Shown: positions 2,370 through 47,277 of the stretch, in pieces
How the letters are laid out: the number at the start of each line of letters is the position of its first letter
Position numbering within the stretch: position 1 is the first letter of the stretch
DNA from: an uncultured Candidatus Rokubacteria bacterium
GTDB lineage: Bacteria > Methylomirabilota > Methylomirabilia > Rokubacteriales > CSP1-6
Length of the DNA stretch: 64,000 nucleotides
NCBI GenBank assembly: GCA_963762145.1
Contig: CAVXJS010000021.1
Location: 224,001-288,000, forward strand
Direction: 5' to 3'
Notes under the pieces: model-generated
The model's database searches: none
What the model was told of the DNA's origin: nothing
What the model saw: the letters and a program-made list of their open reading frames with translations, nothing else
Position numbers and translations under genes: made by a program

Positions 2370-4136
2370 ATGCGCCGGCTCGTCCCGCTCGCCGTCGCGG
2401 TCCTCACCGCGGTGCCCTTCCTCTCCACGCTGTCCGGCTCGTTCCTCAACTGGGACGACAACGTCAACTTCCTCGAGAATCCGGCGTATCGTGGGCTCGA
2501 CCTCGAGCATGTCCGCTGGGCCTTCACGAGCGTGGCCTTCGGCCATTACATCCCGCTGACCCGTCTCACCTGGAGCCTCAACTGGGTCCTGGGCGGGATG
2601 AACCCCTGGGGCTATCACCTGGTGAACGTGCTGCTGCACGCCGTCAACGCGGCCCTCTTCTACGTCGTGGCCCGGCGCCTGCTGGCTGCCGCGGTGGCCG
2701 ATGGCGCCCAGGCCGGACGGCACGGAGCCGACCTGTGCGTGGCCGCGGCGGTCGCCGCGCTGGTCTTTGGCGTTCATCCGCTGCGGGTCGAGCCGGTGGC
2801 CTGGATCACCGGCCGCCCCGACCTGCTCTGCGGCTCCTTCGTGCTGCTCACGACGTGGGCTTACCTCCGTGCGACCGAGAGCGGAGGGCCCGCCCACCGC
2901 GGCCTCATCGGGATCGCCTCCGTCACACTCGGGGCCGCGCTGCTCTCCAAGGGAGCCGCGCTGCCGTTCGTCGGGGCGCTCTTCATCCTCGATGTCTACC
3001 CTCTCCGCCGAGTCCGGCGGCTGGGCCTCCGCGCCCTGGTGCGGGAGAAGCTCCCGCTCCTGCTGGTGACGGTGGCGGGGGCGGGAGCCGTCATCTACGC
3101 GGTCCGGCAGGGCGCCGTCCTCACCCTCATCTCCGAGCACGGCGGCGGCGCCCGGATCTCCGCGGCGGCCCATACCTTTCTCGTCGCCCCGCTGAGGGTG
3201 ATCTGGCCGGCCGCCCTGTCCCCGCTCTACGAGATGCCGGCGCGGATCAGCCCGCTCGAGCCCAGATTCGCCCTGGCCCTGGCCGGCGTGATCGTGGTCA
3301 CCGTGGTGCTGATCGGGTTGCGCAGGCGCTGGCCCGGAGGCCTCGCGGCGTGGGCGTTCTCGATCCTCATGCTCGCCCCGACGAGCGCGGTGGTGAGGCA
3401 GGGTGTCGATCTGTCGCCCGACCGTTACACCTACCTCTCCGGCATGGGATTCGCCGTCCTCGTGGGGGGTGCGACCCTCGGCCTGATCCGGCTCGTTCGG
3501 CAAGGAACCCTGACCCGTTCCCTTGGATGGTCTGCCGCCTTCGCGGGCCTGATCGCGATCGGGGCCCTCGCGAGCGCCGCGTGGAGCTACAGCCTGGTCT
3601 GGGGGGAATCGGAGACGCTCTGGCGCTGGGCCATCGAGGTCAATCCCGACTGCGGCGTCTGCCACGGCAAGCTCGGCGAGAGCGCCCTCGGCGGGCCGGG
3701 GGGACAGGCGCGGACCACGGAGGCCGAGGCGCTGTTCCGCCACGCGATCGCCTTGCGGCCGGATCTCCCCGACGCGTACTACAACCTCGGAACGGCCCTG
3801 GTGCTCCAGGGGCGATATAAGGATGCAGAGGTACCGCTCCGTAGGTACATGGAGCGCGCGCCCTGGTCCCCGTCGGGACCGGAGCGCCTGGGCCTCGTGT
3901 ACCTCCTGCAGGGCGAGCATGAAGCGGCCGTCCCGCTCCTCCGGACTGCGTTCGCCCTGAAGCCGGGTGCCCCGGACCTGGGCCGCTATCTGATCCAGGC
4001 CCTCGAGGGCCAGGCCCGGGCGCTCGAGGCCCAGGGACGAGCCGGCGAAGCCGGGGCGCTCCTGGCGGAGGCGCGTGCTGTCATCTTGAAGCCGTCGAAG
4101 CCACCCGCCGCGTCCGGTCCATCGTCGCGCCCATGA
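2370..4136 (+). CDS. TMTC-like GT-C membrane glycosyltransferase with C-terminal TPRs (paralog 1)
   Basis: NWDD loop motif, GYHLVNVLLH, HPLRVEPVAWI, ALLSK, DRYTYL, WGESETLW, then TPR repeats (AYYNLG); many hydrophobic segments. Confidence 0.85.
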   Translation: MRRLVPLAVAVLTAVPFLSTLSGSFLNWDDNVNFLENPAYRGLDLEHVRWAFTSVAFGHYIPLTRLTWSLNWVLGGMNPWGYHLVNVLLHAVNAALFYVVARRLLAAAVADGAQAGRHGADLCVAAAVAALVFGVHPLRVEPVAWITGRPDLLCGSFVLLTTWAYLRATESGGPAHRGLIGIASVTLGAALLSKGAALPFVGALFILDVYPLRRVRRLGLRALVREKLPLLLVTVAGAGAVIYAVRQGAVLTLISEHGGGARISAAAHTFLVAPLRVIWPAALSPLYEMPARISPLEPRFALALAGVIVVTVVLIGLRRRWPGGLAAWAFSILMLAPTSAVVRQGVDLSPDRYTYLSGMGFAVLVGGATLGLIRLVRQGTLTRSLGWSAAFAGLIAIGALASAAWSYSLVWGESETLWRWAIEVNPDCGVCHGKLGESALGGPGGQARTTEAEALFRHAIALRPDLPDAYYNLGTALVLQGRYKDAEVPLRRYMERAPWSPSGPERLGLVYLLQGEHEAAVPLLRTAFALKPGAPDLGRYLIQALEGQARALEAQGRAGEAGALLAEARAVILKPSKPPAASGPSSRP

Positions 4137-6043
4137 GGTCCCCGAGAAGCCTCGGCCTGCTCGTGCCCGGGCTGATCTTCCTGCTCGTCGGCGCGGTGTT
4201 CCTTCCGGCGCTGAACGGAGAGTTTCTCAACTGGGACGACTCGGTCAACTTCGTGGCCAACCCCCACTACCGCGGTCTGGCCTGGCCGCAGATCAGGTGG
4301 ATGCTGGGGGCAACGCTCATGGGCCACTACATCCCGGTGACCTGGTTGAGCTTCGGGCTGAACTACACCCTGGGTGGAATGAATCCCTGGGGCTACCACC
4401 TCGGAAATCTCCTGGTCCACGCCACCAACGCCACACTCGTGTACCTCATCGCCCGCCGTCTTCTTGCGGCGGCGCACGGAGATGGTGCGCAGCGGGGGCA
4501 CACGGCGGGCCCGATCGTGGCCGCGGGGGCGTTCGCGGCCGTGGTATGGGGCGTTCACCCGCTGCGCGTCGAGTCCGTGGCGTGGATCACCGAGCGGCGA
4601 GACGTCCTCTGCGGGCTGTTCTTTCTGCTCACCATCCTCGCCTACCTGAAGAGCCTCGAGCGGGGCGGGCACCCCAGGCCGATCTGGCAGGTGGTGGCCT
4701 TGGTCGCGTTCGCGGCGGCCCTCCTGTCGAAGGCGGCGGCGATGCCCCTGCCTGCGGTCTTGCTCCTGCTGGATCTCTACCCACTCCGACGGAGGGGTGC
4801 CGGTTGGAAGCGGCTGGTCATCGAGAAGGTCCCGTACGCGGTCCTTGCCGGCGCGACCGCGGTGGTCGCTCTGATCGCCCTGCCCCGCGGCGCTGCCGTG
4901 ACGTCGTACGAATCGTACGGCATGGGCGCCCGGATCGGCATGGTCGCCTATAGCTTCATGTTCTATCCTTCAAAACTTATTTTGCCAGTTAGTCTTTCGC
5001 CGATGTACGAGCTGCCCGCCCGGGTCGAGCTCGGCAGCTGGCCCTTTCTTGCTGCGCTCGTGGGGGTCGTGGGGGTAACCGCGATCCTCCTCCTAATCCG
5101 GACCAGGTGGCCGGGAGGTCTCGCCGCATGGACGTACTCGGCACTGATGGTGCTCCCGGTCAGTGGCTTCGTCCATGCGGGCAGCCAGCTCGTCAACGAC
5201 CGCTACAGCTACCTCTCGAGCCTCGGCTTCACGGTCCTGGCCGGCGCCGGACTGCTCGCGGTGCTACGCCTCCGGGAGCGGGGCCGCGCGACGAGGACAA
5301 CCGTCTCGGTGCTGATGGCGGGCGCGGCGCTCGTCATCCTGGCCCTGGGCGTCGCGGCCTGGACGCAGACCTACGTCTGGCGGGATTCGGAGACGCTCTG
5401 GCGGTGGGCGGTCGAGATGGACCCGGCCTGCTCGCTCTGTCAAGGCAACCTGGGCTCCGCCATCACCACGGCGGCGCTGGGGCAGGCCCGCCTCGATGAG
5501 GCGGAAGGGCACCTGCGTCGGGCGATCGAGCTACGGCCCGACAACCCCATCCCCCACTTCAACCTCGGGACCCTTCTGTCGGTCCGGACGCGGTACGCCG
5601 AAGCGGAGGCGGCTCTCCGGCGCTACCTCGAGCTCCTGCCGGCCGCACGGGACGGCCTGGGGCGGCTCGGCCTGCTCTACTTGCTCCAGGGTCGTCTCGA
5701 GGATGCGGCCCCGCTCCTCCTACGCGCCCGGGGATTGCCGCCAGCAGGACCCGTGGGGCCGGGCGGCCCGGCCTCCATCACACTCGCGACGGCCATCAGC
5801 CTCGTGGAAGACGATCCGGGAACGCTCATCCTGCTGGGGCGGGCGCTGGTCGAACAGGGGAACCCCGGCGACGCGATCTTCGCACTGCGCCGTGCGGCCG
5901 TCCTGGATCCTTCGGCCGTGCCCGCCCACTTCTGGCTCGTTCTGGCCTACCGGGGCGCCGGGCGGGACGACCTGGCTCGCGAGCAGCTGGATCTCCTGCT
6001 CCGGATCGATCCGCGCGCGGCCGCCGGGGTCCCCGTTCGTTGA
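4133..6043 (+). CDS. TMTC-like GT-C glycosyltransferase + TPRs (paralog 2)
   Basis: NWDD, GHYIP, HPLRVESVAWITERRD, LLSK, DRYSY, WRDSETLW, TPRs; ATGA overlap with paralog 1. Confidence 0.85.
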   Translation: MRSPRSLGLLVPGLIFLLVGAVFLPALNGEFLNWDDSVNFVANPHYRGLAWPQIRWMLGATLMGHYIPVTWLSFGLNYTLGGMNPWGYHLGNLLVHATNATLVYLIARRLLAAAHGDGAQRGHTAGPIVAAGAFAAVVWGVHPLRVESVAWITERRDVLCGLFFLLTILAYLKSLERGGHPRPIWQVVALVAFAAALLSKAAAMPLPAVLLLLDLYPLRRRGAGWKRLVIEKVPYAVLAGATAVVALIALPRGAAVTSYESYGMGARIGMVAYSFMFYPSKLILPVSLSPMYELPARVELGSWPFLAALVGVVGVTAILLLIRTRWPGGLAAWTYSALMVLPVSGFVHAGSQLVNDRYSYLSSLGFTVLAGAGLLAVLRLRERGRATRTTVSVLMAGAALVILALGVAAWTQTYVWRDSETLWRWAVEMDPACSLCQGNLGSAITTAALGQARLDEAEGHLRRAIELRPDNPIPHFNLGTLLSVRTRYAEAEAALRRYLELLPAARDGLGRLGLLYLLQGRLEDAAPLLLRARGLPPAGPVGPGGPASITLATAISLVEDDPGTLILLGRALVEQGNPGDAIFALRRAAVLDPSAVPAHFWLVLAYRGAGRDDLAREQLDLLLRIDPRAAAGVPVR

Positions 6044-6116: not shown

Positions 6117-7310
6117 ATGAGATTTGCACGACTTCGCCTCGTCATCGCCGTCATCGCCGCTTTGGCGTTGGTCCTGCCGGTGGCCTCCATCACCGACGCG
6201 CAGTCCAAGGGGACCATCAAGATCGCCTCCCAGAGCCCGCTGTCGGGTGGCCAGGCCGTGCTCGGCGAAGGCATCAAGCTGGGCGCCCAGCTCGCGGTCG
6301 AGAAGCTGAAGGGCAACCTCGAGAAGATGGGCTACAAGGTCGACTTCGTGCCGTTCGACGACCAGGCCAAGCCGGACGTCGGCGTGGCCAACGCGAAGAA
6401 CATCATTGCGGACAAGGACATCATGGTGGTCATCGGCCACCTGAACTCGGGGGTCGCGATCCCGTCGTCCGAGGTCTACAAGGAAGTCACGCTGGCCATG
6501 ATCTCCCCGGCCAACACCAACCCGGTGGTCACCGATCGCAACTACGTCAACGTGAACCGGGTGTGCGGACGTGACGACGTCCAGGGCGTGGTGGGCTCCG
6601 AGTTCGCCCACGGGACCATGAAGGTCAAGAGCGCCTATATCGTGCACGACAAGACCCAGTACGGGCAGAGCATCGCCGAGTTCTTCAAGGCGGACGCCGA
6701 GAAGAAGGGGATCAAGGTCGTGGGCTTCGAGGGCACCGAGGAGAAGTCGAACTTCGATCCGCTCCTCACCCCGATCAAGGCCAAGAACCCCGACATCATC
6801 TACTTCGGCGGGATCTACGACCAGGGGGCGCCCTTCTTCAAGCAGGCGCGCGAGAAGGGGATCAAGTCCAAGTTCATGGGCCCCGACGGCATGGACTCCT
6901 CGGACCTGACCAAGATCGCGGGCAAGGCGGTGGTGGGGATGAACTACACCTCCGCGGCCGGTCCGGCTTCCGCGCTGCCCAAGGCGAAGGCCTTCGTGGA
7001 CGACTACAAGAAGAAGTTCAGCAAGAACCCCGAGCCCTACGCGGCCGAGGCCTACGACGCGACCACGATCGCGATCAAGGCGCTGGAAGAGGCGGCGAAG
7101 AGCGGCAAGGTCACGCGTGAGGACGTCTCCGCCGCGATCCGCAAGGTCAAGCTCTCCGGGATCACCGGCGACATCGCCTTCGACAGCAAGGGCGATCGGC
7201 AGAAGGCCCAGTACTTCGTGCTGACCGTCGCGAGCGACAATCCCGACAAGTGGGGGGACAACAAGATCGTCAAGCAGCTCACGATCGCACCTCCCGCGGT
7301 CAAGAAGTAG
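6117..7310 (+). CDS. livK: Branched-chain amino acid ABC transporter substrate-binding protein
   Basis: Signal peptide, SPLSG, DDQAKP, VIGHLNSG, RVCGRDD, HDKTQYG; ATG 6117 after a strong RBS (ORF 5496 is an upstream extension). Confidence 0.9.
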   Translation: MRFARLRLVIAVIAALALVLPVASITDAQSKGTIKIASQSPLSGGQAVLGEGIKLGAQLAVEKLKGNLEKMGYKVDFVPFDDQAKPDVGVANAKNIIADKDIMVVIGHLNSGVAIPSSEVYKEVTLAMISPANTNPVVTDRNYVNVNRVCGRDDVQGVVGSEFAHGTMKVKSAYIVHDKTQYGQSIAEFFKADAEKKGIKVVGFEGTEEKSNFDPLLTPIKAKNPDIIYFGGIYDQGAPFFKQAREKGIKSKFMGPDGMDSSDLTKIAGKAVVGMNYTSAAGPASALPKAKAFVDDYKKKFSKNPEPYAAEAYDATTIAIKALEEAAKSGKVTREDVSAAIRKVKLSGITGDIAFDSKGDRQKAQYFVLTVASDNPDKWGDNKIVKQLTIAPPAVKK

Positions 7311-7324
7311 CGCGGCCATCCGCC

Positions 7325-7354
7325 GGAGGGGCGCCCGGATCCGGGCGCCCCTCC
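7325..7354. repeat. Perfect 30-bp palindrome between livK and livH (stem-loop; mRNA stabiliser or attenuator)
   Basis: GGAGGGGCGCCCGGA|TCCGGGCGCCCCTCC is its own reverse complement; no U-tract follows. Confidence 0.8.
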
Positions 7355-7383
7355 CACTGCTCCCGCCTTCCCGTTGACTGCCG

Positions 7384-8355
7384 ATGGACTTTGAGCTCCT
7401 GATCGGCATCTTCCCGCAGGTCCTCATCGACGGCCTCACTCTGGGCTTCATGTACGCCCTGATCGCGCTCGGCTACACCATGGTCTACGGCGTGCTCGAG
7501 TTCATCAACTTCGCCCACTCCGAGATCTTCATCATCGGGGCCTTCGTGGGGGTGGAGATCCTGTTGTCGTTCAAGTCGGCGGGCTGGCTGGACGTGCTGC
7601 CCTGGGTCCTCGTGCTGTTCCTGGTGCTGGTCGCGGGCATGGCGGTGAGCGGCGCCGTCGCGGTGGTGATCGAGCGGACCGCCTACCGGCCTCTGCGCAG
7701 CGCGCCGCGGCTCATTCCCCTGATCTCGGCGATCGGCGTCTCCTTCTTCCTCCAGGACGCGATCCGGCTCTTCGAATCGCTCTGGCGCAACTCCTTCAAC
7801 CTCGTGTACCCGACCATGGATGTGCTCAATCACCGCTTCGAGCTGACCGAGACGATCGACGTCTCCGTCAAATCGCTCGTGGTGATCGTGGCCGCGCTGC
7901 TCATGCTCTGGAGCCTGCACACCCTCGTCAACCGCACCAAGGTCGGGAAGGCGATCCGCGCGGTGGCGGAGGACCAGGCGGCCGCCTCGCTCATGGGCAT
8001 CAACGTGAACCGGATCATCTCGCTGACCTTCCTGATCGGCGGGGCCATGGGCGGGGGCGCCGGCGTGCTCTTCGGCGTGCAGTACAGCCTGATCAACCCC
8101 TACACCGGCTTCATCCCGGGACTGAAAGCCTTCACCGCCGCGGTGCTGGGCGGCATCGGCAATATTCCCGGCGCCATGCTGGGCGGTCTCGTCCTCGGGC
8201 TGCTCGAGGCCTTCGCAGCGTCCTACCTGTCGCTGCTGACCGGCGGTGCCTTCGGGGCGGAGTACAAGGACATCTTCGCGTTCTCGATCCTGATCCTGAT
8301 CCTCATATTCCGTCCGAAGGGTCTCCTCGGCGAAGTGGTGCGGGAGCGGGCATGA
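7384..8355 (+). CDS. livH: Branched-chain amino acid ABC permease
   Basis: YALIALGYTMVYGVLEFINFAH, RAVAED...LMGIN, GLKAFTAAVLGGIG, FRPKGLLG. Confidence 0.93.
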   Translation: MDFELLIGIFPQVLIDGLTLGFMYALIALGYTMVYGVLEFINFAHSEIFIIGAFVGVEILLSFKSAGWLDVLPWVLVLFLVLVAGMAVSGAVAVVIERTAYRPLRSAPRLIPLISAIGVSFFLQDAIRLFESLWRNSFNLVYPTMDVLNHRFELTETIDVSVKSLVVIVAALLMLWSLHTLVNRTKVGKAIRAVAEDQAAASLMGINVNRIISLTFLIGGAMGGGAGVLFGVQYSLINPYTGFIPGLKAFTAAVLGGIGNIPGAMLGGLVLGLLEAFAASYLSLLTGGAFGAEYKDIFAFSILILILIFRPKGLLGEVVRERA

Positions 8356-8369
8356 TCAAGAAGACGCGA

Positions 8370-8427
8370 CAGCTCCCCATAGAGGGCACGCGCCAGCGTG
8401 CCCGTTTCCAAGAAGAAGAGGGGGCTG
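8370..8427. repeat. Nested inverted-repeat (REP/MITE-like) element in the livH-livM spacer
   Basis: Inner hairpin GGGCACGC-GCCA-GCGTGCCC enclosed by CAGCTCCC...GGGGGCTG; spacer is A-rich relative to the flanking genes. Confidence 0.5.
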
Positions 8428-8480
8428 CCCAACCACCAACCCAGTCCGCCAACACGTTACAAACCCGCAAGGAGAACCGG

Positions 8481-9740
8481 ATGAAGGACCTGAACCGTCC
8501 ACTCCCCGCGAGCATCCTGGTGACCGCCCTGCTCGCGGCCACGACCTGGGGCGTGCTCTAAGCCCCCGTGCGGTGTCGGTCTTCCTGCTGTTCCAGGGCA
8601 CGCTCCTGCTCCTCTACCTGGCCCGCATGCCCGCCCTCGTCAAGGGCGCCCTCACCGTCATCACCCTGGGTGGGTTGATGCCGTGGTCGGTACGGTCAAC
8701 GCGTACTACATGGAGATCGCCATCCAGGTCGGCATCTTCGTGGCGCTCGCGCTCGGGCCTCAACATCGTGGTGGGGCTGGCGGGCCTGCTCGACCTGGGC
8801 TACGTGGCCTTCTTCGCGGTGGGCGCCTATTCCTGGGCGATCTTCGGGTCGCCGCAGGCGAACCTGATCTTCGGCGGCGACTACTTCCCGCTGAACCCGT
8901 GGTGGTTCTTCGTGTTCCTGTTCGTCGGGGTCGGCGGTGGCCGCCGGCGCGGGCATCCTGCTCGGCCTGCCGGTGCTGCGCCTGCACGGCGACTACCTGG
9001 CCCTGGTGACGCTCGGCTTCGGCGAGGTGATCCGCGTGCTCGCCAACAATCTCGACAAGCCGATCAACCTCACCAACGGCCCCAAGGGCATCACCCCCAT
9101 CGGCCGGCCGCCCATCTTCTTCGCCGCGCCCCTCGAGGCGATCGGCATCGATCCCAACCCCAACGTGATCTACCCGCTCTACCTGTACGCGCTGGTGCTC
9201 CTCATCGTGGGCGCCACCGTGCTCGCGAATCGCCGCCTGGAGGACTCGCACATCGGGCGCGCGTGGGAGGCGATCCGCGAGGACCAGACCGCGGCCCAGG
9301 CGATGGGCGTTCCCCTCGTGCGCATGAAGCTGCTCGCCTTCGCCTGCGGCGCCTCCTTCGCGGGCACCGTCGGGGTGCTCTTCTCGGCCAAGCAGATCTT
9401 CATCAACCCCGAGTCCTTCACGTTCATGGAGTCCATCGGCGTGCTCGCCATGATCATCCTGGGCGGCATGGGCTCGATTCCCGGCGCGATCCTTGGCGCC
9501 GCGGTGGTGACCATCCTGAACCTGCAGGTGCTCAAGGGCCTCTCGCTCTGGCTCAACGAGCTGCGGAACGCGGGGACCGTCATCTTCGGCTACGATCTCG
9601 TCAACCTGCCGACCCAGCTCGAGCCGGCCAAGTACGAGCGGATGGTCTTCGGCCTCATCCTCGTGCTCATGATGATCTTCCGCCCCCAGGGCATCCTGCC
9701 CGCGAAGCGCCGGCACCGGGAGCTCGCCGAGAAGCCCTGA
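8481..9740 (+). CDS. livM: Branched-chain amino acid ABC permease (several indels and an apparent stop between ~8560 and ~8940)
   Basis: GGAG RBS + ATG 8481; fragments GLNIVVGLAGLLDLGYVAFFAVGAY, LRLHGDYLALVTLGFGE, GRAWEAIRED, FRPQG spread over ORFs 8352, 8573, 8683 and 8937. Confidence 0.85.
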
Positions 9741-10538
9741 TGCCTCTGCTCGAGGCCCGGGCGGTGAGCAAGCACTTCGGCGGGTTGACGGCGCTGAACA
9801 CGGTGGACTTCACGCTCGAGGAAGGTCACATCGCCTCGATCATCGGGCCCAACGGGGCGGGCAAGACCACCTTCTTCAACGTCTTCACCGGGATCTACGT
9901 GCCGGAGGAAGGCGTCGTGACCTTCCGGGGCACGCCGGTGCTGGGCCGGCGCCCCGACCAGATCACCGCGCTGGGCATCTGCCGCACCTTCCAGAACATC
10001 CGCCTCTTCCCCCGGATGACCGCCATCGAGAACGTGCTGGTGGGCATGCACAGCCGCGTCCCGCTGACCTTCTGGGACGTCGTCAGCCGGAACCAGCGCT
10101 GGCGGGACCAGGAGCGGCGGCAGTGGGAGCACGGCGCCGAGCTCCTCGAGGTGGCGGGGCTCCGGGACAAGGCCAACGAGCTCGCGCGCAATCTCCCCTA
10201 CGGTGACCAGCGGCGGCTCGAGCTGGCGCGCGCGCTCGCCTCCGATCCGGCGCTGCTGCTGCTCGACGAGCCCACCGCGGGCATGACCCAGGGCGAGGCC
10301 CGCAGTCTCATGGCGCTCCTGCGCCGGCTGGTGGAGCAGCGCAAGCTCACCTTGCTCCTCATCGAGCACAACATGCGGGTGGTGATGGAGGTCTCCGACC
10401 GCGTCACCGTGCTCGACTACGGCGAGAAGATCGCGGAGGGCCGGCCCGGCGACGTCCAGCGGGATCCTCGAGTGATCGAAGCGTACCTCGGGCGCCGGCG
10501 GTGGACTCCGGGCGCGAACGCGGCGAGCGGCGAGCGCC

Positions 10539-10546: not shown

Positions 10547-11243
<697 letters not shown>

Positions 11244-33445: not shown

Positions 33446-33446
33446 C

Positions 33447-37750: not shown

Positions 37751-39625
37751 CTAGCGAACCACGGTCGGCGCGGCCGCCCTCGGGTCCAGCCGACGGAGCG
37801 CCGCGAGCTCCCCCTCGGCCCGCGCGGTCTGTCCCGCTCCCTGGTACGCGTGCGCGAGCCACAATCGGAAGCTGGGCGCCGAGGGATAGAGCTGCACCGC
37901 GCGCGCGAGCGGGACGATCGCGTCGCCCGCCCGGCCCTGTTCGAGCAGGGCCTGGCCGAGGAATCGGAGGGTCTCGCCATCGCGGATCAGGTCTGCCGCG
38001 GCCGTGAGGTCGTCGCGGGCCCCGTCGGACCGGGAAATGCCACGGGCCCGGCGCAGGAGCGGGATCGCCTCGTCGGATCGCCCCTGGACGAGGTAAAGCA
38101 CGGCGAGCCGCTCGGCCCCGTCCGGAGCATCCGGCTGCCGCGCCACGTAGCTCCGCAAGGCAACCTCCGCCTCTCCGTAGCGTCCACGGAGCAGCGCGAC
38201 CGTGCCGAGGTTGAGGTGGCTCAGGGCGTACGTGGGCCGGAGCGCCACCGCCTGACGGAGATGGTCCTCCGCCTCGCTCAGGCCCTGCGGGTCTCGACGG
38301 TCGTGCATGAGCGCCACGCCCAGGTTGTTGTGGCAGCGGGAGCAGCGGGGATCCAGCTCCACCGCCCATCGCCAGAGCGTCTCGGGGTCTCGCCACACGT
38401 AGGTCTGGCTCCACGTCAGCAGCGCGAGGGCTCCGAGCATCAGCACGATTCCGCCGCTCGCCATCGTCATGGCCGCGCGCCGCACCCGGCCCGTCCGGTG
38501 GAGTTCGAGCAGGCGCACGAGCCCGTAGCCGGCCAGGACGACGAATCCGACCTGGGCGAGATAGCTGTAGCGATCCGCGACCATCTGGATGCCCGAGTGC
38601 ACGACCCCGCTGACCGGCGCGACGAAGTCGGCGGCGTGCGCCCACGCGGCGAGCGCGCCCGGCGCGCGACGCCGGAGCGCGAGCAGGACGCCGGTCACCG
38701 CGAGCAGGGCGAGCAGCGGCACCAGGAAGCGGGGATCCAGGAGGCTCACCTGGCTGGGCGCCTCGTAGAGCGGGGACAGATCGGCCGGCCACACGAGCTT
38801 CAACGGGGAGAAGCACACGCTGTACGCGATCAGCCCGATGCGCGCCGCGGTGCCGTACCCGCCGTAGTCGCTGAACTCCGCCCCCTGGGCCCGCGCCCAC
38901 GCCGCCACCACCGCGCCCGCCGCCGCCAGCGCGCAGTACGGCAGCTTCTCAATGAGCACACGGCGCCACCCCGTTCCCCACCTCCGGAGGGGGTATGCGT
39001 CGAGGATCAGGAGCGTGATCGGGAGGGTCATGGCCATCCCCTTGGACAGGAGCGCCGCCGCGAAGGCCACGACGGAGGCGACACTCCACCACGTGCGATG
39101 CGGGCCGTCCGGGCCCCCGACCGCGCGCAGATAGGCCAGGACCGCGAGGAGGTAGAACGCCGCGCACAGCAGGGTGGCCCGATCGGAAACCCACGCGACG
39201 GATTCGGCCCGCTGGGGATGGAGCGCGAAGAGCAGCGCGGCCAGCGCGGCGCCCAGCCTGACGTCCGCGGCGGTCTCCACGGGAGATGGCCGCGCGACGG
39301 CCAACAGCCGCCGCGCCACCCAGTAGACGAGCACCGCGTTGACGGCGTGCAGCAGCAGGCTGGCGAGGTGATATCCCCACGGGTCCATCCGGCCGAGAGC
39401 GTGGTCGAGGGCGAAGGTCAGCCACGTGAACGGCATGTAGTGGCCCATCAGGGTGTTGGTGAACATCCACCCGATCTGGCTCGCGTCGAATCCCCGGTAC
39501 CTGAGATTCGTCACCAGGTTGATGTCGTCGTCCCAATTGAATCCGCCCTGGAGGGCGGGCCAGAAGGCGGCGCACGTCACCAGGAAGATGCCGACCGGGA
39601 ACAGGGCGGCGGGGAGCTTGCGCAT
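37751..39625 (-). CDS. TMTC-like GT-C glycosyltransferase + TPRs (paralog 5)
   Basis: NWDD, GHYMP, HPQRAESVAWVSDR, LLSK, DRYSY, WRDPETLW, CSRCHNNLG, TPRs. Confidence 0.85.
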   Translation of the reverse strand: MRKLPAALFPVGIFLVTCAAFWPALQGGFNWDDDINLVTNLRYRGFDASQIGWMFTNTLMGHYMPFTWLTFALDHALGRMDPWGYHLASLLLHAVNAVLVYWVARRLLAVARPSPVETAADVRLGAALAALLFALHPQRAESVAWVSDRATLLCAAFYLLAVLAYLRAVGGPDGPHRTWWSVASVVAFAAALLSKGMAMTLPITLLILDAYPLRRWGTGWRRVLIEKLPYCALAAAGAVVAAWARAQGAEFSDYGGYGTAARIGLIAYSVCFSPLKLVWPADLSPLYEAPSQVSLLDPRFLVPLLALLAVTGVLLALRRRAPGALAAWAHAADFVAPVSGVVHSGIQMVADRYSYLAQVGFVVLAGYGLVRLLELHRTGRVRRAAMTMASGGIVLMLGALALLTWSQTYVWRDPETLWRWAVELDPRCSRCHNNLGVALMHDRRDPQGLSEAEDHLRQAVALRPTYALSHLNLGTVALLRGRYGEAEVALRSYVARQPDAPDGAERLAVLYLVQGRSDEAIPLLRRARGISRSDGARDDLTAAADLIRDGETLRFLGQALLEQGRAGDAIVPLARAVQLYPSAPSFRLWLAHAYQGAGQTARAEGELAALRRLDPRAAAPTVVR

Positions 39626-39693: not shown

Positions 39694-41526
39694 ATGTTGC
39701 GTCCCGCCTGGCGAGTTGCGCCCTTCGCTCTCGCGCTCGTGACCGCCGTGGTCTTCGCCCCCGTCCTCCGCGGCGGCTTCCTCGACTGGGACGACCCCAT
39801 CAATTTCCTGGAGAACCCCTACTATCGGGGGCTCGGCTGGCCGCAGCTCCGGTGGATGCTGACCGCGAGCGTCATGGGCCACTGGATCCCGGTGACCTGG
39901 CTGACGCTCGGCGCCGACTTCGCGGTGTGGGGCATGAACCCGTTCGGCTATCACCTCACGAATCTCCTGCTGCACGCGGTGAGCGCCGCGCTCTTCTATC
40001 TCGTTGCACAGCGTCTGCTCGGGCTCGCGATGCCGGCGGCCTCGCCCGGCACCGCGAGCCTGGGCGCGGCCGTCGCCGCGCTCTACTTCGCGGTGCATCC
40101 GCTGCGCGTGGAGTCCGTCGCGTGGATCACCGAGCGCCGTGATCTCACGTCGGGCCTGTTCTTTCTCCTCGCGATCCTCGCGTACCTGAAGGCCCACGAG
40201 CGGCCGCCCGCGGTGGCGACGGGCTGGCGCTGGGTCTCGCTCGCCGCCGCGGCGCTGGCGCTGGCCTCCAAGTCCATCGTGATGGGCCTGCCGCTGGTGC
40301 TGCTCATCCTCGATCTCTATCCGCTGGGCCGCCTCGGGCACCGCGTCAGGGACTGGTGGAGCCCCCCGGCCCGGCGGGTCTGGCGCGAGAAAATTCCGTT
40401 CGCGCTCCTCGCGGCCGCGACGGGCGCCGCGGCGTACCTGGTCCAGCGGAACGCCGGCTACCTGACGCCGGCGGATCCGGCCGGGCGGATCGGCATGGTC
40501 GCGTACAACGTCTGGTTCCACGTCTGGAAGACGGTGGCGCCGCTCGACCTCGCCCCCATCTACGAGCTGCCCTCGCGCGTGAATCCGCTCGAGGTGCCCT
40601 ACCTGCTGAGCGCGGCCGGCGCCCTCGCGATCACCGTCGCGGTCTGGCTCCTGCGGCGGCGCTGGCCGGCCGGTCTCGCCATCTGGGCCTTCTACCTGGT
40701 GACGCTGGCGCCGGTGGCCGGAGTCGTCCACACCGGCAATCATCTCGGCGCGGATCGCAACACCTACGTGCCCGGCATGGCGTTCGCCCTGCCGATCGGG
40801 GCGCTGGCGATGGCCATCGTGCTGGCGCGGCGACGGGGTCTGCTGCGCGCCTCCATCGCGGCCATGGCCCTCGCCGCGGTGGCGATGTGGATCGGCGGCC
40901 TCGCGCTCGCGGCCCGGGCCCAGTCCTTCATCTGGCACGACTCGGAAACCCTCTGGCGCTACGCCATCGAGGTCGAGCCCGCCTGCGCCATCTGCCACCA
41001 CAACCTCGGCACCAACGTGGCCCGGCGCGGGGACTGGATCCAGGCGCAGGCGCTCCTCGACCGGGCCATCGCGCTGCGCCCCGACCGGTCGGAGTTCCAG
41101 GGCACCTACGGGCCGATCCTGATCCAGATGGGCCGGCGCGCGGAGGGCGTGGCCAAGCTTCGCTACCGCCTCGACCGGGAGCCGCGCGACGTCACCGCCC
41201 GCGTCAACCTGGCGATCGCCCTCATCGAGGACGGCCAGCCCGGCGAGGCGATCGCCGAGCTCGAGCAGGCGCTTCGCGTCAAATCGGACTCGGTGCCGGC
41301 CCTGACCTCGCTCGGCCGGGCGCTGCTCGCCGAAGGCCGCGCCGAGCCGGCCCAGGCGGCCTTCGAGCGGGCGCTCCGATCCGATCCGGCGGACCCCGTC
41401 GCCCATCTCGGGCTCGCCCGCGCGCACCTCGCGCGCGGCGATCGCGCGGCCGCTCGGGAACAGATCCCGCTCCTGGATCGTCTCGATCCCCGCCTCGCTC
41501 GTATTCTCGAGCAGGAGATCCGGTAG
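39694..41526 (+). CDS. TMTC-like GT-C glycosyltransferase + TPRs (paralog 6)
   Basis: DWDD, GHWIP, HPLRVESVAWITERRD, DRNTY, WHDSETLW, CAICHHNLG, TPRs; TAGACT at 39681 suggests a leaderless start (GTG 39691 or ATG 39694). Confidence 0.85.
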   Translation: MLRPAWRVAPFALALVTAVVFAPVLRGGFLDWDDPINFLENPYYRGLGWPQLRWMLTASVMGHWIPVTWLTLGADFAVWGMNPFGYHLTNLLLHAVSAALFYLVAQRLLGLAMPAASPGTASLGAAVAALYFAVHPLRVESVAWITERRDLTSGLFFLLAILAYLKAHERPPAVATGWRWVSLAAAALALASKSIVMGLPLVLLILDLYPLGRLGHRVRDWWSPPARRVWREKIPFALLAAATGAAAYLVQRNAGYLTPADPAGRIGMVAYNVWFHVWKTVAPLDLAPIYELPSRVNPLEVPYLLSAAGALAITVAVWLLRRRWPAGLAIWAFYLVTLAPVAGVVHTGNHLGADRNTYVPGMAFALPIGALAMAIVLARRRGLLRASIAAMALAAVAMWIGGLALAARAQSFIWHDSETLWRYAIEVEPACAICHHNLGTNVARRGDWIQAQALLDRAIALRPDRSEFQGTYGPILIQMGRRAEGVAKLRYRLDREPRDVTARVNLAIALIEDGQPGEAIAELEQALRVKSDSVPALTSLGRALLAEGRAEPAQAAFERALRSDPADPVAHLGLARAHLARGDRAAAREQIPLLDRLDPRLARILEQEIR

Positions 41527-41591
41527 GCGGACCGCTTTCGGTGTAGACTTCCCCTCGCAGCGACAGCGATTCCCCACATGAGGTCAGCGAC

Positions 41592-43710
41592 ATGACGGCC
41601 AGCTCCAATCCCTCGCGGATCGGCGTGGACATCGGCGGCACCTTCACCGACCTGGTCTGGGTGGACGAGACCACCGGCGCCGTCCGCGTCGGCAAGGTCC
41701 TGACCACCCCGAAGGACCCGTCGCAGGCGGTGGAGGAAGGCGTGGTGACGCTGCTGCACGAGGCGGGCGCCGCCACCACCGCCGTACGCGCGCTGATCCA
41801 CGGCACCACGCTGGTCACCAACGCGCTGATCGAGCGCAAGGGCGCGCGGGCGGGGCTGCTCACGACCGCGGGCTTCCGGGACGCGGTCGAGATCGGGCGG
41901 GAAGGCCGCTACGACATGTACGATCTCTTCATCGACCCGCCGGTGCCGCTCGTGCCGCGCCAGCTCCGCGTGCGAGGTGTCCGAGCGCGTGCAGGCCGAC
42001 GGATCCGTCCTCCGGCCGCTCGACCTGGCCCAGGCGCGTGCCGCGGTGGCCGAGCTCGGCGCCCTGGGGGTGGAGGCCATCGCGGTCTGCCTGCTCCACG
42101 CCTACCGCAACCCGGCGCACGAGCGGGCGCTCGCCCGGCTCTGCGCCGAGCTCGCCCCCGGCGTCCCGGTGTCGCTGCTCCTCCGATGTGGTGCCCGAGA
42201 TCCGCGAGTACGAGCGCACCTCGACGACCACCGCCAACGTGTACGTGATGCCGCTGATGTCGCGGTATCTCGACGATCTCGAGCGCAAGCTGCCAGGGGC
42301 TCGGCGTCCCGGGCCGGCTGTACGTCATGCTGTCGGCCGGCGGCATCGCGACGCCCGAGACCGCCAAGCGCGTGCCGATCCGGCTCGTGGAATCGGGGCC
42401 GGCGGCGGGCGCGCTCGCGGCGGCGCGCTACGGCCCGCCGAGTCGGCATGGACCGCGTGCTGTCCTTCGACATGGGCGGCACCACCGCCAAGGCCTGCGT
42501 CATCGACCGGGGCGAGCCGCTGCTCGCGCGCGAGTTCGAGGTCGCGCGGGCGTATCGGTTCAAGAAGGGCTGGGGCCTGCCGATCCGCGTTCCGGTCGTG
42601 GAGCTGATCGAGATCGGCGCGGGCGGCGGCTCCATCGCCCGGGTCGACCGCTGGGCCTGCTCAAGGTCGGCCCGGACAGCGCCGGGGCGGATCCGGGCCC
42701 GGCCTGCTACGGGCTGGGCGGCCGCGAGCCCACCGTCACCGACGCCGACCTGCTCCTGGGTTATCTCGACGCCGAGTTCTTCCTGGGCGGCCGCATGCGG
42801 CTCGACGTGGAGGCCGCCCGGCGAGCCGTCGAGGAGCGCGTGGCCCGGCCGATGGGCCTCGAGCTGATCGACGCGGCCTGGGGCATTCACCGCGTGGTCA
42901 ACGAGAACATGGCGGGCGCCGCGCGCGTCCACGCCATCGAGCGCGGCAAGGACCTGCGCGGCTATCCGCTCTTCGCGTTCGGCGGCGCGGGACCGGTGCA
43001 CGCCTGGGAGGTGGGCCGCATCCTGCGCGTGCCGCGCGTGCTCGTGCCGTTCGGGGCGGGCGCGCTCTCGGCCTACGGGCTCCTGGCCGCGCCACTCGCC
43101 TTCGACTTCGTGCGCACCGCGCCGCAGCGCATGGCCGCGGCGGACTGGGCGCAGATCAACCGGCTCTTCGACGAGATGGAAGCGGAAGGCCGCCGCATCG
43201 TGCGCGGCGCCGGCGTGGCCGAGCGGGACATCAGCGTGCGCCGCACCGCCGAGATGCGCTACCTGGGCCAGGGCCACGAGGTGGACGTGGAGATTCCGGC
43301 CGGTCCGCTCGGGCCCGAGAGCCTGAGCGCGATCACCGCCGCGTTCGAGGCAGCCTATCGCCTCCTCTATAGCCGCACGCCCGCAGGGCGGTGCCGCTGG
43401 AGGCGCTCAACTGGCGCGCCGTCGTCTCCGGCCCGCGCCCGGATCTCACCATCAGCGGCGGGATGGCAGCCCGGCGCAGCCGTCACGCCCGGCCCCAAGA
43501 AGCACCGGGCCGCCTACTTTCCGGAGGCCCGTGGCTACGTCGAGACCCCGGTGTACGACCGCTACGCGCTGGGCCCGGGCGTGCGCCTCGCGGGGCCGGC
43601 CATCGTCGAGGAGCGCGAGTCCACCGCCGTCATCGGCCCGGGGGCGGTGATCACGGTGGACGACCACCGTACGCTCATCGCCGAGCCGGCGAGCCACGGA
43701 GGTGCGGTGA
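41592..43710 (+). CDS. Hydantoinase/oxoprolinase subunit A (multiple frameshifts)
   Basis: IGVDIGGTFTD, IHGTT, EYERTSTT, ESGPAAG, FDMGGTT, IGAGGGSIA, VGP.SAGADPGPACYG, PTVTDA, FGGAGP, RY.GQ across ORFs 41592, 41977, 42038, 42327 and 43391. Confidence 0.85.
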
Positions 43711-45347
43711 TGGATCCGATCACGCTCGACATCTGCTGGAACCGGCTGATCGGGGTGGTCAACGAGCAGGCGGCCGCGCTCGATGCGCACCTCGTTCACC
43801 TCGATCGTGCGCGAGGCGGGCGACCTCTCGGCCGGCGTCTTCGACCGGCGCGGCTACATGATCGCCCAGGCGGTCACCGGCACGCCCGGGCACATCAACT
43901 CGATGGCACCTGCCATGAAGCACTTCCTGGCCGCGTACCCGATCGAGCCGCTGCGGCCGGGCGACGTGCTGATCACCAACGACCCCTGGAAGACCTCCGG
44001 GCATCTCAACGACGTCACGGTCGTGCACTCCGGTCTTCCGCGGGCCGGACTGCGTCGCGTTCTTCGGCATCCACCTGCCACAGCGCCGACATCGGCGGCC
44101 GCGTGCTCTCGCGCGGAGGCCCGCGAGGTGTACGAGGAAGGCCTGTTCATCCCGATCATGAAGCTGTACGACGCGGCGGCCGGCTCGACGACTCGCTCGC
44201 CGCGATCATCCGCGCCAACGTGCGCGTCGCCCGACGAGGTGCTGGGCGACTTCCACGCGCAGGTCGCGGGCGGCAACCGTCGGCGGGCGAGCGCCTGCTC
44301 GAGTTCATGGACGAGTTCGGCCTCGAGCGGCATCGAGCCGCTCGCCGACGAGATCATCTCCCGCACCGAGCGCGGCCATGCGCGAGGCGATCGCCGCGCT
44401 TCGGCCGACGGCGACTACCGGTACTGCATCACCTCGGACGGCTTCGACGAGCCGATCACGCATCGCGGTCGCGGTGCGCGATCGAGGGCGACGATCTCGC
44501 TGGTGGACTACACGGGCTCCTCGCCCGCCAGCCGGCGCGGGCATCAACGTCGTGATGAACTACACCGACGGCCTACACGACCTACGGGGTCAAGGTCATC
44601 GTGAGCCCCGACGTGCCCAACAACGAGGGCGCCTTCCGGGTCCTTCGCATCACCGCGCCCGAGGGCTCCATCCTGAACGTGCAGCCTCCCGCGCCGGTCG
44701 CGGCCCGTCACATCGTCGGCCACTTCCTGCCCCACGCGGTGGCGGGCGCCCTCAAGGAGGCGCTGCCCGATCGGGTGATGGCCGAGGGCTCCGCGAACAT
44801 CTGGGGTCTCCAGCTCACCGGCAAGAACCCCGACCGCACGCCCTGGGTCTACACGTTCTTCAGCTCGGGCGGCACCGGGGCGCGACCCCAGCAGGACGGG
44901 CTGTCGGCGACCGCGTTCCCGTCGGGCGTGCTCGGCACCCCGGTGGAGGTCGTCGAGTCGCTCGCCCCGCTGCTGATCGAGCGCAAGGCTCTCCGGGGCG
45001 GCTCGGGCGGCGACGGGCGCCAGCGCGGCGGCCTCGGCCAGGTGATCGCCTTCCGGGTCCGCTCCGACGAGCCGGCCACGTGCTCGGTCCTCTGCGATCG
45101 CACGCAGACCCCGGCGCAGGGATTCTTCGGCGGCCGACCCGGCATGACCGGGCAGGTGCTGATCAACGGTCGCGCGCCCGCCAATCCGAAGGCCGAGCAG
45201 ACGCTGCGCCCGGGCGATCTGGTCGAGATCCTGCTGCCGGGCGGCGGCGGCTACGGCGATCCCGCGGAGCGGGATCCGGCCCTCCGCGCGCGAGACCTGC
45301 AGCAAGGCTACGTCCTGGGCGCGGAGCGAGGGATCGCGGCGGGCTGA
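43710..45347 (+). CDS. Hydantoinase B/oxoprolinase subunit B (many frameshifts)
   Basis: GGAGG RBS + MDPITL; RTSFTSIVRE..D, TNDPW..GHLND, EEGL.IP, PNNEG, GGTGA, TPVEV.E, GGGGYGDP. Confidence 0.85.
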
Positions 45348-45375
45348 TCCCGCTCGCCCCCGGTAGCCTGCCCGC

Positions 45376-47277
45376 TCAGTCGCGCCGAGCGGGGTCGCGC
45401 GGCGAGGTCTTGCCGAGCCGTTGCGCGGCGCGGGCGAGCTCGGCCGCGAGGGCAGGATCGAGCGGGCCGGCCCCCTGCAGCCGCGCGACGTAGCGCTCCC
45501 AGGCCGCCCGGGCGCGCGCGGGATCCCGCCCCGCGGTCACCTCCGCGGTGACCCGGTCCGCGAGCGGCAGCTCCGGGCTCATGAGCCGGACCAGCGCGAG
45601 CGCGCGCTCGAGCTGCGCCTCGGCCGGCTCCGCCTGACCGACCCACGCGAGCGCGAGGGCGCGGTTCAGCGCCGCGTGGACCTGGTTGGGCTTGGTCCGG
45701 AGCGATTCGGTGAGCTCGGGCAGCGCCAGCGCCGGCTCGCCGCGCTGGAGGTACAGCGCGCCCAGCGACGCCAGCACGTCCGCGTTCCCCGGCGCGAGCG
45801 CGCGCGCCTCGAGCCCGTGCCGGAGCCCCGCCTCGCGCTCCCCGAGGATGGTCTCGGTAAGTCCGAGCCCCGCGTTCGCCCTCGGGCTCCCGGGCGCGAG
45901 GCGCACCGCCTCGCGCAGGTGCTGGTTGGCCGGGCCGATCTCGCCACGGGCGAGCTGGGTGAACGCCAGGTTGAGGTGGGGCATCGCGGCGGCCGGCTCG
46001 GTCTCGACCATCCGCGAGTAGAGCCGGTACTCATCGCGCCAGTCCTCGTTACGCCAGAGGGTGAGGACCGCGTAGGCGAGCAGGACCGCCGCGAGGCCGA
46101 GGGACGGGATCGGGCGGATCTGAGTGGTACGGCCCCACGCCAGCGGGCCGAGCAGGCGGCCCGCGCCCCAGCCGAGGGCGAGAGAGAAGCCCACCGTGGG
46201 GAGGTAGAGGAAGCGCTCCGCCATGACCGCGCTCGGCAGGGGCAGCAGGTTCACCGCGATGGACGGCGCGAGCGTGATCCAGAACCAGAGCGCGCCGAAC
46301 CCGGCGGCGGGCGCTCGGCGAGCCGCCCAGATCGTCGCACCTAGCATGGCCATCAGACCGGCCAGCGCCAGCCACCACCCCAGGTCCGGCGGCACGGTCT
46401 CGGGGGCGATCGCATGGTAGGGACGGGTGGGATACGGAACGATCGTGAGCCAGGCGTACGCGGCCACGATCCGGACGGTGGTCAGGATCCGTTCGAGAAG
46501 GGAGCCCCACGCCTCTCCGCCGGGCTCGAGCCCGGCGAGCGCGAAGACGCGCAGGCCGAGATACAGCGCGGTGACCGCACCGTACGCGGCATAGCGACCG
46601 GCCGCCCGCCACGCGGCCCCACGGTCCCGCAGGTCGCCACGAACGAGCCCGTCCCAGAGCGCCAGCACGACCGGCAGCGTGATCGCCACTTCCTTGGCGA
46701 GTAGCGCGAGCAGGTAGGCCGCGAGCGACCACGCCAGCGGCCCCCACCGCTCTCGCGCGCGGCTCCGGTCGTAGGCGAGCAGGGCCAGCAGGAAGAAGAA
46801 GGTGGCGACGACGTCGGTCCGGCCCGAGACGAAGCTCACCGATTCCGTGTGGAGCGGGTGCAGTGCGAACACGAGCGCGCAGATCGCGACGGCGGGTCCG
46901 CCGCCCAGGGCCAGCCGCGCCACCGCGAGCACCGCCACGGTCACCGCCGCGTGAGCGATGACGTTCGTGAGATGGAACCCGAGCGGGTGGAGTCCCCAGA
47001 TCTGCACGTCCAGGAAGAAGGTCAACGTGATCAGGGGCCGATAGTAGCGACTCGCTTCCCCGACCTCGGCCCAGAAGTGCGAGGAGAGCAACGAGGGCAG
47101 CGCCTGCCAGTGATGCAGGCGCCAGCTCTGCTGGATGAGGAGCGTGTCGTCCCAGACGAGATCGTACCCGAGCGTCGCGGCGTAAGCGGCCACGGCCACG
47201 AGAGCCACGAACGCGGAGACCGCGAGCCGGCCCGGCGTGGCCCGCGACGGATCTGGGGGTGCGGAGGCCCCGGTCAT
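45376..47277 (-). CDS. TMTC-like GT-C glycosyltransferase + TPRs (paralog 7, canonical type)
   Basis: VWDD, YYRPL, FHLTNV..H, HPLHTESVSFVSGR.D, LLAKE, MAERFLYLP, RNEDWRDE, TPRs. Confidence 0.88.
   Translation of the reverse strand: MTGASAPPDPSRATPGRLAVSAFVALVAVAAYAATLGYDLVWDDTLLIQQSWRLHHWQALPSLLSSHFWAEVGEASRYYRPLITLTFFLDVQIWGLHPLGFHLTNVIAHAAVTVAVLAVARLALGGGPAVAICALVFALHPLHTESVSFVSGRTDVVATFFFLLALLAYDRSRARERWGPLAWSLAAYLLALLAKEVAITLPVVLALWDGLVRGDLRDRGAAWRAAGRYAAYGAVTALYLGLRVFALAGLEPGGEAWGSLLERILTTVRIVAAYAWLTIVPYPTRPYHAIAPETVPPDLGWWLALAGLMAMLGATIWAARRAPAAGFGALWFWITLAPSIAVNLLPLPSAVMAERFLYLPTVGFSLALGWGAGRLLGPLAWGRTTQIRPIPSLGLAAVLLAYAVLTLWRNEDWRDEYRLYSRMVETEPAAAMPHLNLAFTQLARGEIGPANQHLREAVRLAPGSPRANAGLGLTETILGEREAGLRHGLEARALAPGNADVLASLGALYLQRGEPALALPELTESLRTKPNQVHAALNRALALAWVGQAEPAEAQLERALALVRLMSPELPLADRVTAEVTAGRDPARARAAWERYVARLQGAGPLDPALAAELARAAQRLGKTSPRDPARRD

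Follow-up and report, generated by a model that had tools for sequence, protein, structure and literature searches.

TfpW of Pseudomonas aeruginosa group IV strains, described as a pilin D-arabinofuranosyl transferase with a polyprenyl-phosphate-linked sugar donor, is reported to have 646 aa, an N-terminus in the cytoplasm, 11 transmembrane (TM) segments by prediction, an essential DDx motif within the first loop on the periplasmic side and, at the C-terminus, a large tetratricopeptide repeat (TPR) domain in the periplasm (bioRxiv 10.1101/2020.04.19.049825). Eukaryotic TMTC1-4 (family GT105), cadherin O-mannosyltransferases, are described with 11 TM segments, TPRs and seven motifs; the same source gives E<1e-30 for DUF1736 in human TMTCs and mentions prokaryotic TMTC homologues (PMC7801869). 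Three-component periplasmic systems (GtrA/GtrB/Gtr*; ArnC/ArnT with ArnE/ArnF) combine a family 2 glycosyltransferase (GT2), the polyprenyl-phosphate sugar synthase, with a GT-C transferase (PMC11127046), and in streptococcal GtrB/PgtC2 and PgfS/PgfM1 a GT2-made polyprenyl-phosphate sugar is passed by a GT-C enzyme to Ser/Thr of exported proteins (PMC12041528). Here we analyse a 64,000-nucleotide stretch of DNA (the window) from an uncultured Candidatus Rokubacteria bacterium (GenBank assembly GCA_963762145.1, contig CAVXJS010000021.1, positions 224,001 to 288,000), in which seven paralogous genes for multi-TM proteins with TPRs (p1 to p7) lie near a nucleotide-sugar operon. With somewhat better than even confidence, we read the region as two separable things side by side: module A, consisting of the sugar operon with its GT2 and an ArnT-like GT-C, and module B, the paralog cluster.

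The evidence that carries this reading is comparative. The nucleotidyltransferase and PfkB kinase fusion (NTK) of the operon was used as the anchor: a scan of species genomes with its alignment, taking 10-kb flanks, gave at least 562 confirmed relatives, and 80 loci were kept. NTK relatives have 511 aa and 70-97% identity, and a search of annotated cultured replicons returned only relatives of 32% identity. The 80 loci span Rokubacteria, Chloroflexi, Bacillota, Polyangiales, Binatia, Elusimicrobia, Planctomycetes, Acidobacteria, many Alphaproteobacteria, Chlamydiae and Thermoplasmata, and the cassette core (SDRs, NTK fusion, GFO oxidoreductase, dehydrogenase, SIS isomerase and methyltransferase) is kept throughout. 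One locus, L005, carries an archaeal label (Nitrosocosmicus), but its genes share 75-88% identity with the window operon; it is probably mis-binned.

A paralog-type gene was present within 10 kb of the cassette in three of the 80 loci (L001, L002 and L003), as judged with an N-domain hidden Markov model (HMM) over six-frame open reading frames (ORFs) at E<=1e-3. These are the nearest relatives, with anchor identities of 92-97%; L001 carries orthologs of both p5 and p6, and L002 and L003 that of p6 only, the p5 ortholog being missing from the same site. Among the other loci named Rokubacteria or Methylomirabilota, L011 and L027, of the same phylum and with full flanks, gave no match to the N-domain HMM, and L005 (anchor identity 88%) keeps the CADD and HbpS genes and has no paralog in its remaining 1.8 kb. 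An earlier note on this DNA had claimed a functional link between paralogs and operon and had named beforehand the finding of the two unlinked in relatives as the outcome that would count against it; this is the outcome that the 80 loci gave, and the claim is not upheld. The clustering of paralogs near module A is lineage-specific, and does not demonstrate that the paralogs use the module A sugar.

The same counts bear on an alternative in which all seven paralogs and the ArnT-like enzyme would draw on one common donor, the operon sugar as loaded by the single GT2, each glycosylating different exported proteins including type IV pilins. We regard this as improbable. Linkage confined to the nearest relatives, the lack of a paralog in what remains of L005 and the missing p5 of L002 and L003 stand against it, as does the abundance of the paralog family: at 67,426 clusters against at least 562 confirmed cassette relatives, it is so much more widespread than the cassette that most of its members must use other donors. 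Moreover, no prepilin motif occurs in the window, and the solute-binding proteins beside p2 and p7 have plain signal peptides without a Ser/Thr-rich linker.

Module A finds support in the same set of loci. A GT2 ortholog accompanies the cassette in 22 of the 80 and, among loci of at least 15 kb, a large polytopic ORF was found in 9/16 with the GT2 versus 4/35 without it (Fisher p 0.0014), by a crude hydropathy filter that flagged three of the eight such genes of the window. The polytopic partners vary by lineage, from PMT_2 in L011 and YfhO in L016 and L021 to 8-10 TM proteins without a family in L007 and L008, and those of L007, L008, L011 and L016 are not homologous to one another or to window proteins, bar one antisense artefact. 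In the Bacillota the YfhO-family GT-C adjoins an E1-GT2-sugar cassette (L016 1571-3949; L021), and in the distant Methylomirabilota locus L011 the PMT_2 GT-C (2465-4057) is accompanied by NeuB and a UDP-GlcNAc 2-epimerase. Annotated loci lacking the GT2 show the cassette amid sugar aminotransferases, thiamine pyrophosphate (TPP) enzymes, HAD phosphatases and additional glycosyltransferase genes; in L075 NeuB is there as well. A TPP enzyme stands beside the cassette in 11 of 12 annotated loci, its family varying between E1 alpha/beta, acetolactate-synthase-like and split transketolase.

In the window itself, the gene at 18140 had been called an ArnT-like GT-C, and its PMT_2 score, well above the cut-off, bears this out. 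It gave no BLASTP match to the paralogs and no PDB match at E<=1 in a sequence search. Its C-terminal third is present at the same place in L001, L002 and L004, that is in 3/3 close relatives whose flank reaches that far.

Re-annotation of the sugar operon gave 17 genes on the minus strand, from 35459 to 19898, with one GT2. This confirmed what had been said of it, namely that it is a nucleotide-sugar operon with a single polyprenol-phosphate-type GT2 and no recognisable Wzx, Wzy, Wzm/Wzt or GT4 gene: the 64 ORFs scanned gave no Pfam match of Wzx, Wzy, ABC-2 or GT4 type, and no genes for polysaccharide export turned up in the window. The best PDB matches of the GT2 were DPMS (5mlz, E 8.6e-10), ArnC (9hwj, E 1.1e-8) and GtrB (5ekp, E 6.6e-8), and hydropathy gave no TM segment. 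Since its best solved relatives are DPMS, ArnC and GtrB, the polyprenyl-phosphate type appears a fair reading. That the paralogs flank this operon holds loosely: both sides are occupied by them, but unrelated genes intervene, among them two Liv ABC operons, thiE, ornithine cyclodeaminase, MaoC, purE, CADD, HbpS and hydantoinases.

Module A may then be a self-contained periplasmic glycosylation system of the ArnC/ArnT or GtrB/Gtr* kind. Its portable cassette, consisting of the aldolase, SIS isomerase, NTK fusion, three SDRs, GFO oxidoreductase, NDP-sugar dehydrogenase, methyltransferases and E1 alpha/beta, would make a nucleotide-activated sugar, probably from a heptose-like precursor that is deoxygenated, methylated and given a two-carbon branch. 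The soluble GT2 would couple this sugar to polyprenyl phosphate; once lipid-linked, it may be flipped by the two small 3-TM proteins, and the ArnT-like GT-C would transfer it to an envelope acceptor. The AviB1/B2 pair resembles E1 alpha/beta. TPP enzymes described as adding a two-carbon branch to a sugar, whether of two proteins or one, include AviB1/AviB2, Pau11/12 and YerE (PMC4753412). A name for the sugar product of the cassette was not found in the literature search.

The candidate flippase pair shares 27% identity (E 1e-11) and a P-x-D-L-G-F-L-P motif, and no other ORF of 70-260 aa anywhere in the window has three or more TM segments. The pair is conserved in L001 to L004 and, to a weaker degree, in L010 and L011. 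The Pfam and NCBIfam scans of the window ORFs gave no match to the GtrA family. The desaturase-family protein and two extra methyltransferases at the 3' end of the operon occur in the close relatives L001 to L004 only, and their presence hints at a lipid or lipid-linked substrate.

Turning to module B, genes were called by third-position G+C together with Pfam and NCBIfam scans of the 64 ORFs; the G+C content of the window is 64-74%, and the named relatives of its proteins belong to Candidatus Rokuibacteriota / Methylomirabilota. All seven predicted homologs were found where they had been placed, each with a hydrophobic N-terminal part of about 410 residues followed by a C-terminal part with TPR matches (Pfam and hydropathy; 7/7). 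Members p1-p6 share 40-54% identity with one another (BLASTP; E 4e-107 to 6e-178 in full-length pairs), and p7 is a distant member, with 29-34% identity to the others (E 3e-11 to 1.5e-33). The homology of the seven is far beyond chance. The motifs reported earlier are common to all of them in the form WDD, HPL..E.V and (D/E)R..Y. An alignment of ten N-domains, of which the window supplied seven and related loci three, shows W-D-D, H-P-x-x-x-E-x-V, the Lys that precedes TM6 and the Arg of DRY/ERF without variation, and among 72 distant relatives the second Asp of WDD is invariant, the first at least 90% conserved, and WDD, Lys and Arg as a set nearly invariant.

A length of about 590-680 aa had been given for all seven genes; six are intact, but p3 is not one open frame, showing a single frame change at about 13887-13907. 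With p4 as tblastn query, p3 follows frame 1 up to DRY and frame 2 from there. The best coding frame also switches within accC, the livM/livG region and the hydantoinase A/B genes (384-2357, 8300-10600 and 41500-45400). Given these similar switches, that in p3 may be an assembly error and not the mark of a pseudogene; taken together they suggest either an indel-rich assembly or several pseudogenes.

The membrane topology, of about 11 TM segments, and the segment boundaries were both hand-drawn on the basis of the sequence. In all seven paralogs, Lys and Arg then have a density of 0.19-0.25 in loops placed on the cytoplasmic side as against 0.06-0.10 in loops placed on the periplasmic side. From this positive-inside pattern the N-terminus is placed inside and the WDD loop and TPR domain outside, in the periplasm. 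Furthermore, a Cys-x-x-Cys motif directly follows the last TM segment in p1-p6 and is nearly invariant among p2 relatives, which suits an oxidising compartment and so fits a periplasmic location.

The bacterial family of which the paralogs are members is very large. A search with the p2 N-domain in a library clustered at 50% identity gave 67,426 clusters at E<=1e-3 and 11,290 at E<=1e-30; in plasmids, the N-domains of p2 and p7 had no tblastn match. Many relatives carry JGI names such as 'protein O-mannosyl-transferase', 'TadD' or 'PilF', and databases mostly use 'TPR repeat protein'. Orthologs of p2 at 75-82% identity occur on many contigs, some of them JGI-named 'protein O-mannosyl-transferase' or 'TadD', and NCBI gives one p7-clade relative the name 'glycosyltransferase family 39 protein'.

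The earlier note had described the paralogs as TMTC-like proteins of GT-C/TPR type. As far as layout is concerned this stands, with about 11 TM segments, a TPR domain, and both the WDD loop and the TPRs on the periplasmic side. DUF1736, for which the note had proposed a search, gave no match at E<=10 in the seven paralog N-domains, was not among the 25 most-matched families of 72 relatives or of 69 relatives, and was absent from the precomputed domains of 240 relatives among the matches listed. PMT_2, which was likewise to be looked for, and PMT scored below the Pfam cut-offs in the window paralogs, where only the TPR part has Pfam matches above threshold. The sub-threshold N-domain matches are to GT-C families only: PMT_2 at E 7e-5 (p3), PMT at E 0.015 (p2) and GT22 at E 2.5 (p4). 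In the p7 clade, PMT_2 reaches E<=0.01 in four of 69 members, with a best E of 7.2e-10, and is found among precomputed domains in 3/120 among the matches listed. These weak, transitive matches and the layout point to a putative GT-C fold. We suggest that the seven paralogs are most likely periplasmic glycosyltransferases which would take a polyprenyl-phosphate sugar as donor and select acceptors through the TPR domain.

The acceptors need not be proteins. In one alternative the paralogs would be GT-C-type enzymes of the periplasm that act on glycans or lipids (lipopolysaccharide, exopolysaccharide or peptidoglycan-linked polymers), or polymerase-like enzymes, with the TPR domain docking to export or assembly machinery; we consider it unlikely, if worth keeping in view. 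Most characterised bacterial GT-C enzymes are described as modifying glycoconjugates (PMC11127046), YfhO-family enzymes as serving teichoic acids as well as proteins (PMC12041528), and TfpW itself may polymerise arabinofuranose (bioRxiv 10.1101/2020.04.19.049825). Sub-threshold NCBIfam matches of the TPR segments to BcsC, PgaA and PilW, TPR proteins that belong to polysaccharide or pilus machinery, agree with it. However, TMTC and TfpW, the two families of known function with this exact layout, are described as acting on proteins, and genes for polysaccharide export were not found in the window.

The earlier note had proposed a tree of the paralogs. In a quick maximum-likelihood tree of 64 N-domains, from the window paralogs and from other contigs, all paralogs but p4 are joined to their respective orthologs on those contigs (support 98-100), and since each of these pairs with orthologs elsewhere, the paralogs are old lineages and not recent tandem duplicates. 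N-domain dN/dS values for p5 and p6 against their orthologs are 0.22-0.37, and these two lineages, the ones tested, are under purifying selection. Faster divergence of the TPR domains than of the N-domains was considered and rejected, the identities being similar in most pairs.

These data also bear on the view that the paralogs are without catalysis, as membrane-anchored TPR scaffolds, and that the gene at 12823 (p3) is a true pseudogene. In p1-p6 the K-E motif of TMTC is without its Glu, described as a proposed metal binder (PMC7801869), p3 is frame-shifted and no family model scores above its cut-off in the N-domains. Yet WDD, Lys and Arg are invariant in 10/10 N-domains and nearly so in 72 distant relatives, the dN/dS values are low, and the frequent frame switches of other window genes point to assembly error. 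We therefore hold this view to be highly improbable.

Several observations weigh against the two-module reading. No paralog N-domain passes the cut-off of a GT-C model, the N-terminal part of p3 scoring 23.5 bits versus 26.1 with PMT_2 and p2 scoring 15.3 versus 22.7 with PMT. An N-domain profile gave no match in the PDB at E<=10; for p2, the best 60 of 78 PDB matches (E<=1) all lie at residue 364 or beyond, mostly in the TPR part, where the proteins matched are TPR proteins only; and alignment of the N-domain profile to the ArnT-like gene with hhalign gave a probability of 2.6%. As for separation, seven copies in 45 kb is in our view denser than expected by chance. Furthermore, p3, p4, the FAD oxidoreductase (DAO) gene and the ArnT-like gene stand head to tail, with ends overlapping or close, and may form one transcript, by which two paralogs would be tied to module A. 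The 10-kb flanks ended short of the p3-p4 side in every relative, and a promoter and terminator scan of 11-21 kb was uninformative. The ArnT-like synteny comes entirely from close relatives, whose NTK identity is 86-97%, and could have been simply inherited. Lastly, because the p6 ortholog was counted among the polytopic ORFs of L002 and L003, the association of these with the GT2 leaves the paralogs as possible users of a lipid-linked sugar.

Much of this also speaks for the shared donor introduced above: the seven paralogs lie physically around the operon, the operon-like string ending in the ArnT-like gene abuts it, and the p5/p6 orthologs stay beside it in L001 to L003. The pilB gene is genuine, and TfpW is described as showing that a GT-C with TPRs can glycosylate a pilin from a polyprenyl-phosphate sugar (bioRxiv 10.1101/2020.04.19.049825). 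A bolder proposal, to which we give little credence, makes the paralogs the bacterial counterpart of TMTC, a panel of protein-specific periplasmic O-glycosyltransferases whose TPRs would each select a class of exported proteins, with at least p3-p4, possibly co-transcribed with the ArnT-like gene, using the rare branched sugar of the neighbouring operon. If true, this would be a multi-enzyme, acceptor-partitioned form of protein glycosylation, which is not described in bacteria. Two separable modules remain the account that we prefer.

Coordinates, strands and supporting evidence of the features are collected in Table 1.

Table 1. Paralogs, ArnT-like string and sugar-operon genes, with positions in the window.
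Feature	Coordinates	Strand	Evidence and remarks
p1	2370-4136	+	588 aa; multi-TM N-domain + TPR (Pfam TPR at residues 446-532); p1/p2 46% identity, E 3e-135 (BLASTP); stop overlaps p2 start; WDD, HP..E.V, DRY
p2	4133-6043	+	636 aa; paralog by BLASTP, TPR Pfam, motifs; PMT E 0.015, below cut-off
p3	12823-14869	+	Paralog in two frames, switch at about 13887-13907; TPR matches in second piece
p4	14866-16827	+	653 aa; start overlaps p3 end; BLASTP, TPR Pfam, motifs
FAD oxidoreductase (DAO family)	16941-18143	+	After p4; DAO E 9e-64; soxB/ThiO-like models below cut-off; stop overlaps ArnT-like start
ArnT-like GT-C (PMT_2)	18140-19882	+	580 aa; PMT_2 E 2.4e-15, 57.5 bits vs cut-off 26.1; converges on sugar-operon 3' end
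Methyltransferase, last operon gene	19898-20578	-	Methyltransf_11 E 1.3e-6
Methyltransferase	20585-21481	-	Methyltransf_23 E 2e-28; frame analysis
Membrane fatty-acid-desaturase-family protein	21514-22557	-	FA_desaturase E 1.6e-29
Two paralogous small 3-TM proteins	22560-23630	-	174 and 178 aa; no family match; candidate flippase pair
Fructose-6-P aldolase / transaldolase family	23631-24302	-	TAL_FSA E 1.4e-45
Methyltransferase	24328-24996	-	Pfam scan
SDR, RmlD / GDP-fucose-synthase-like	24974-25987	-	Pfam and NCBIfam scans
SIS isomerase, distant GmhA-like	25849-26682	-	SIS_2; gmhA model E 9e-13, below cut-off
Nucleotide-sugar dehydrogenase	26978-28399	-	TIGR03026, 226 bits vs cut-off 189.8
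GFO/IDH/MocA oxidoreductase	28273-29187	-	Pfam scan
Nucleotidyltransferase + PfkB kinase fusion (NTK)	29184-30720, start approximate	-	HldE-like domains in reverse order
SDR, NDP-sugar 4,6-dehydratase-like	30716-31705	-	GDP_Man_Dehyd E 2e-58
SDR epimerase/dehydratase	31708-32718	-	Pfam scan
GT2, polyprenyl-phosphate-sugar-synthase type	32720-33445	-	241 aa; PDB matches
E1 beta and E1 alpha, TPP-dependent, pyruvate-dehydrogenase-E1-like	33447-35459	-	Pfam and NCBIfam scans
p5	37751-39625	-	624 aa; BLASTP, TPR Pfam, motifs
p6	39691 (GTG) or 39694 (ATG) to 41526	+	611 aa; BLASTP, TPR Pfam, motifs
p7	45376-47277	-	633 aa; divergent clade; K-E-V-x-x-T and E-R-F-L-Y

Type IV pili had been put forward as plausible targets on account of a pilB gene beyond p7. 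The gene is real (TIGR02538, 750.5 bits vs a cut-off of 675.65) and lies 6.2 kb from p7, but neither a prepilin leader motif, sought in six frames of the window, nor a pilin gene was found, leaving the targets unsupported. The PilB ATPase, with an MshEN (c-di-GMP-binding-type) N-terminal domain, stands beside an MglB-like gene, a Ras-like GTPase, Roadblock-domain proteins, response regulators and CheA, and the region 52140-64000 is a cluster of motility-polarity type without pilin genes. At 56649-59624 it also encodes a 991-aa protein with N-terminal TM segments, long Pro/Ala-rich stretches and a segment of about 100 residues that occurs twice; no family matched.

Two Liv-type ABC transporter operons start beside p2 (6117-11243) and p7 (47436-52039). 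Their solute-binding proteins were considered as acceptors and rejected, given the plain signal peptides noted above. S-layer glycosylation in the sister phylum was also set aside, the Methylomirabilis S-layer protein being reported without glycans in the source consulted (PMC8671808). Rfam and tRNA scans of the window found nothing.

Multi-TM proteins with TPRs form one of the larger uncharacterised bacterial membrane families, with TfpW as the one related architecture whose bacterial function is known; a literature search of titles and abstracts found no function for this bacterial family beyond TfpW. Such proteins already go under the name of O-mannosyltransferase in automatic annotation, and what the window adds is a local copy number out of the ordinary; it does not demonstrate a dedicated system. 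A genome with seven copies, old and conserved, within 45 kb would be a convenient place to ask whether TPRs partition acceptors, as proposed for TMTC, and which lipid-linked donors are used.

Compared with known systems, module A comes nearest to the three-component kind: its GT2 matches DPMS, ArnC and GtrB, a syntenic PMT_2 GT-C (18140) lies against the operon, and the operon holds two small membrane proteins that are paralogs of each other. The small pair may resemble ArnE/ArnF. It differs in that its GT2 lacks a TM segment, no GtrA match is found and the sugar pathway is far more elaborate. The streptococcal systems likewise pair a GT2 with a GT-C, and in L016 and L021, both from Bacillota, a YfhO gene is the neighbour of this sugar cassette. 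Actinobacterial Ppm1/Pmt also couple a GT2-made polyprenyl-phosphate sugar to protein O-glycosylation by a GT-C. Unlike the paralogs, the GT-Cs of streptococci and actinobacteria belong to the YfhO or GT39 family and are without TPRs.

For module B, several features described for TMTC are also present in the paralogs, namely DD within luminal loop 1, R-x-D, a Lys where TM5 ends and (D/E)-R-x-x-Y ahead of TM10 (PMC7801869), and p7 additionally has K-E-x-x-x-T. In contrast, DUF1736, the TM7-TM8 loop, is unmatched in the paralogs; the Glu of K-E (M4) is present in p7 only and missing in p1-p6; S-H-K-S-Y-R-P (M2) is only partly kept, reduced to G-H-Y/W-x-P; and D-W (M5) was not found by eye. TfpW differs in setting, tfpW lying directly downstream of pilA as one copy, whereas seven copies and no pilin gene are found here. 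Judged by its published description, with which we made the comparison, TfpW shares with the paralogs its length, its layout and its acidic loop, and is their closest characterised analogue in layout.

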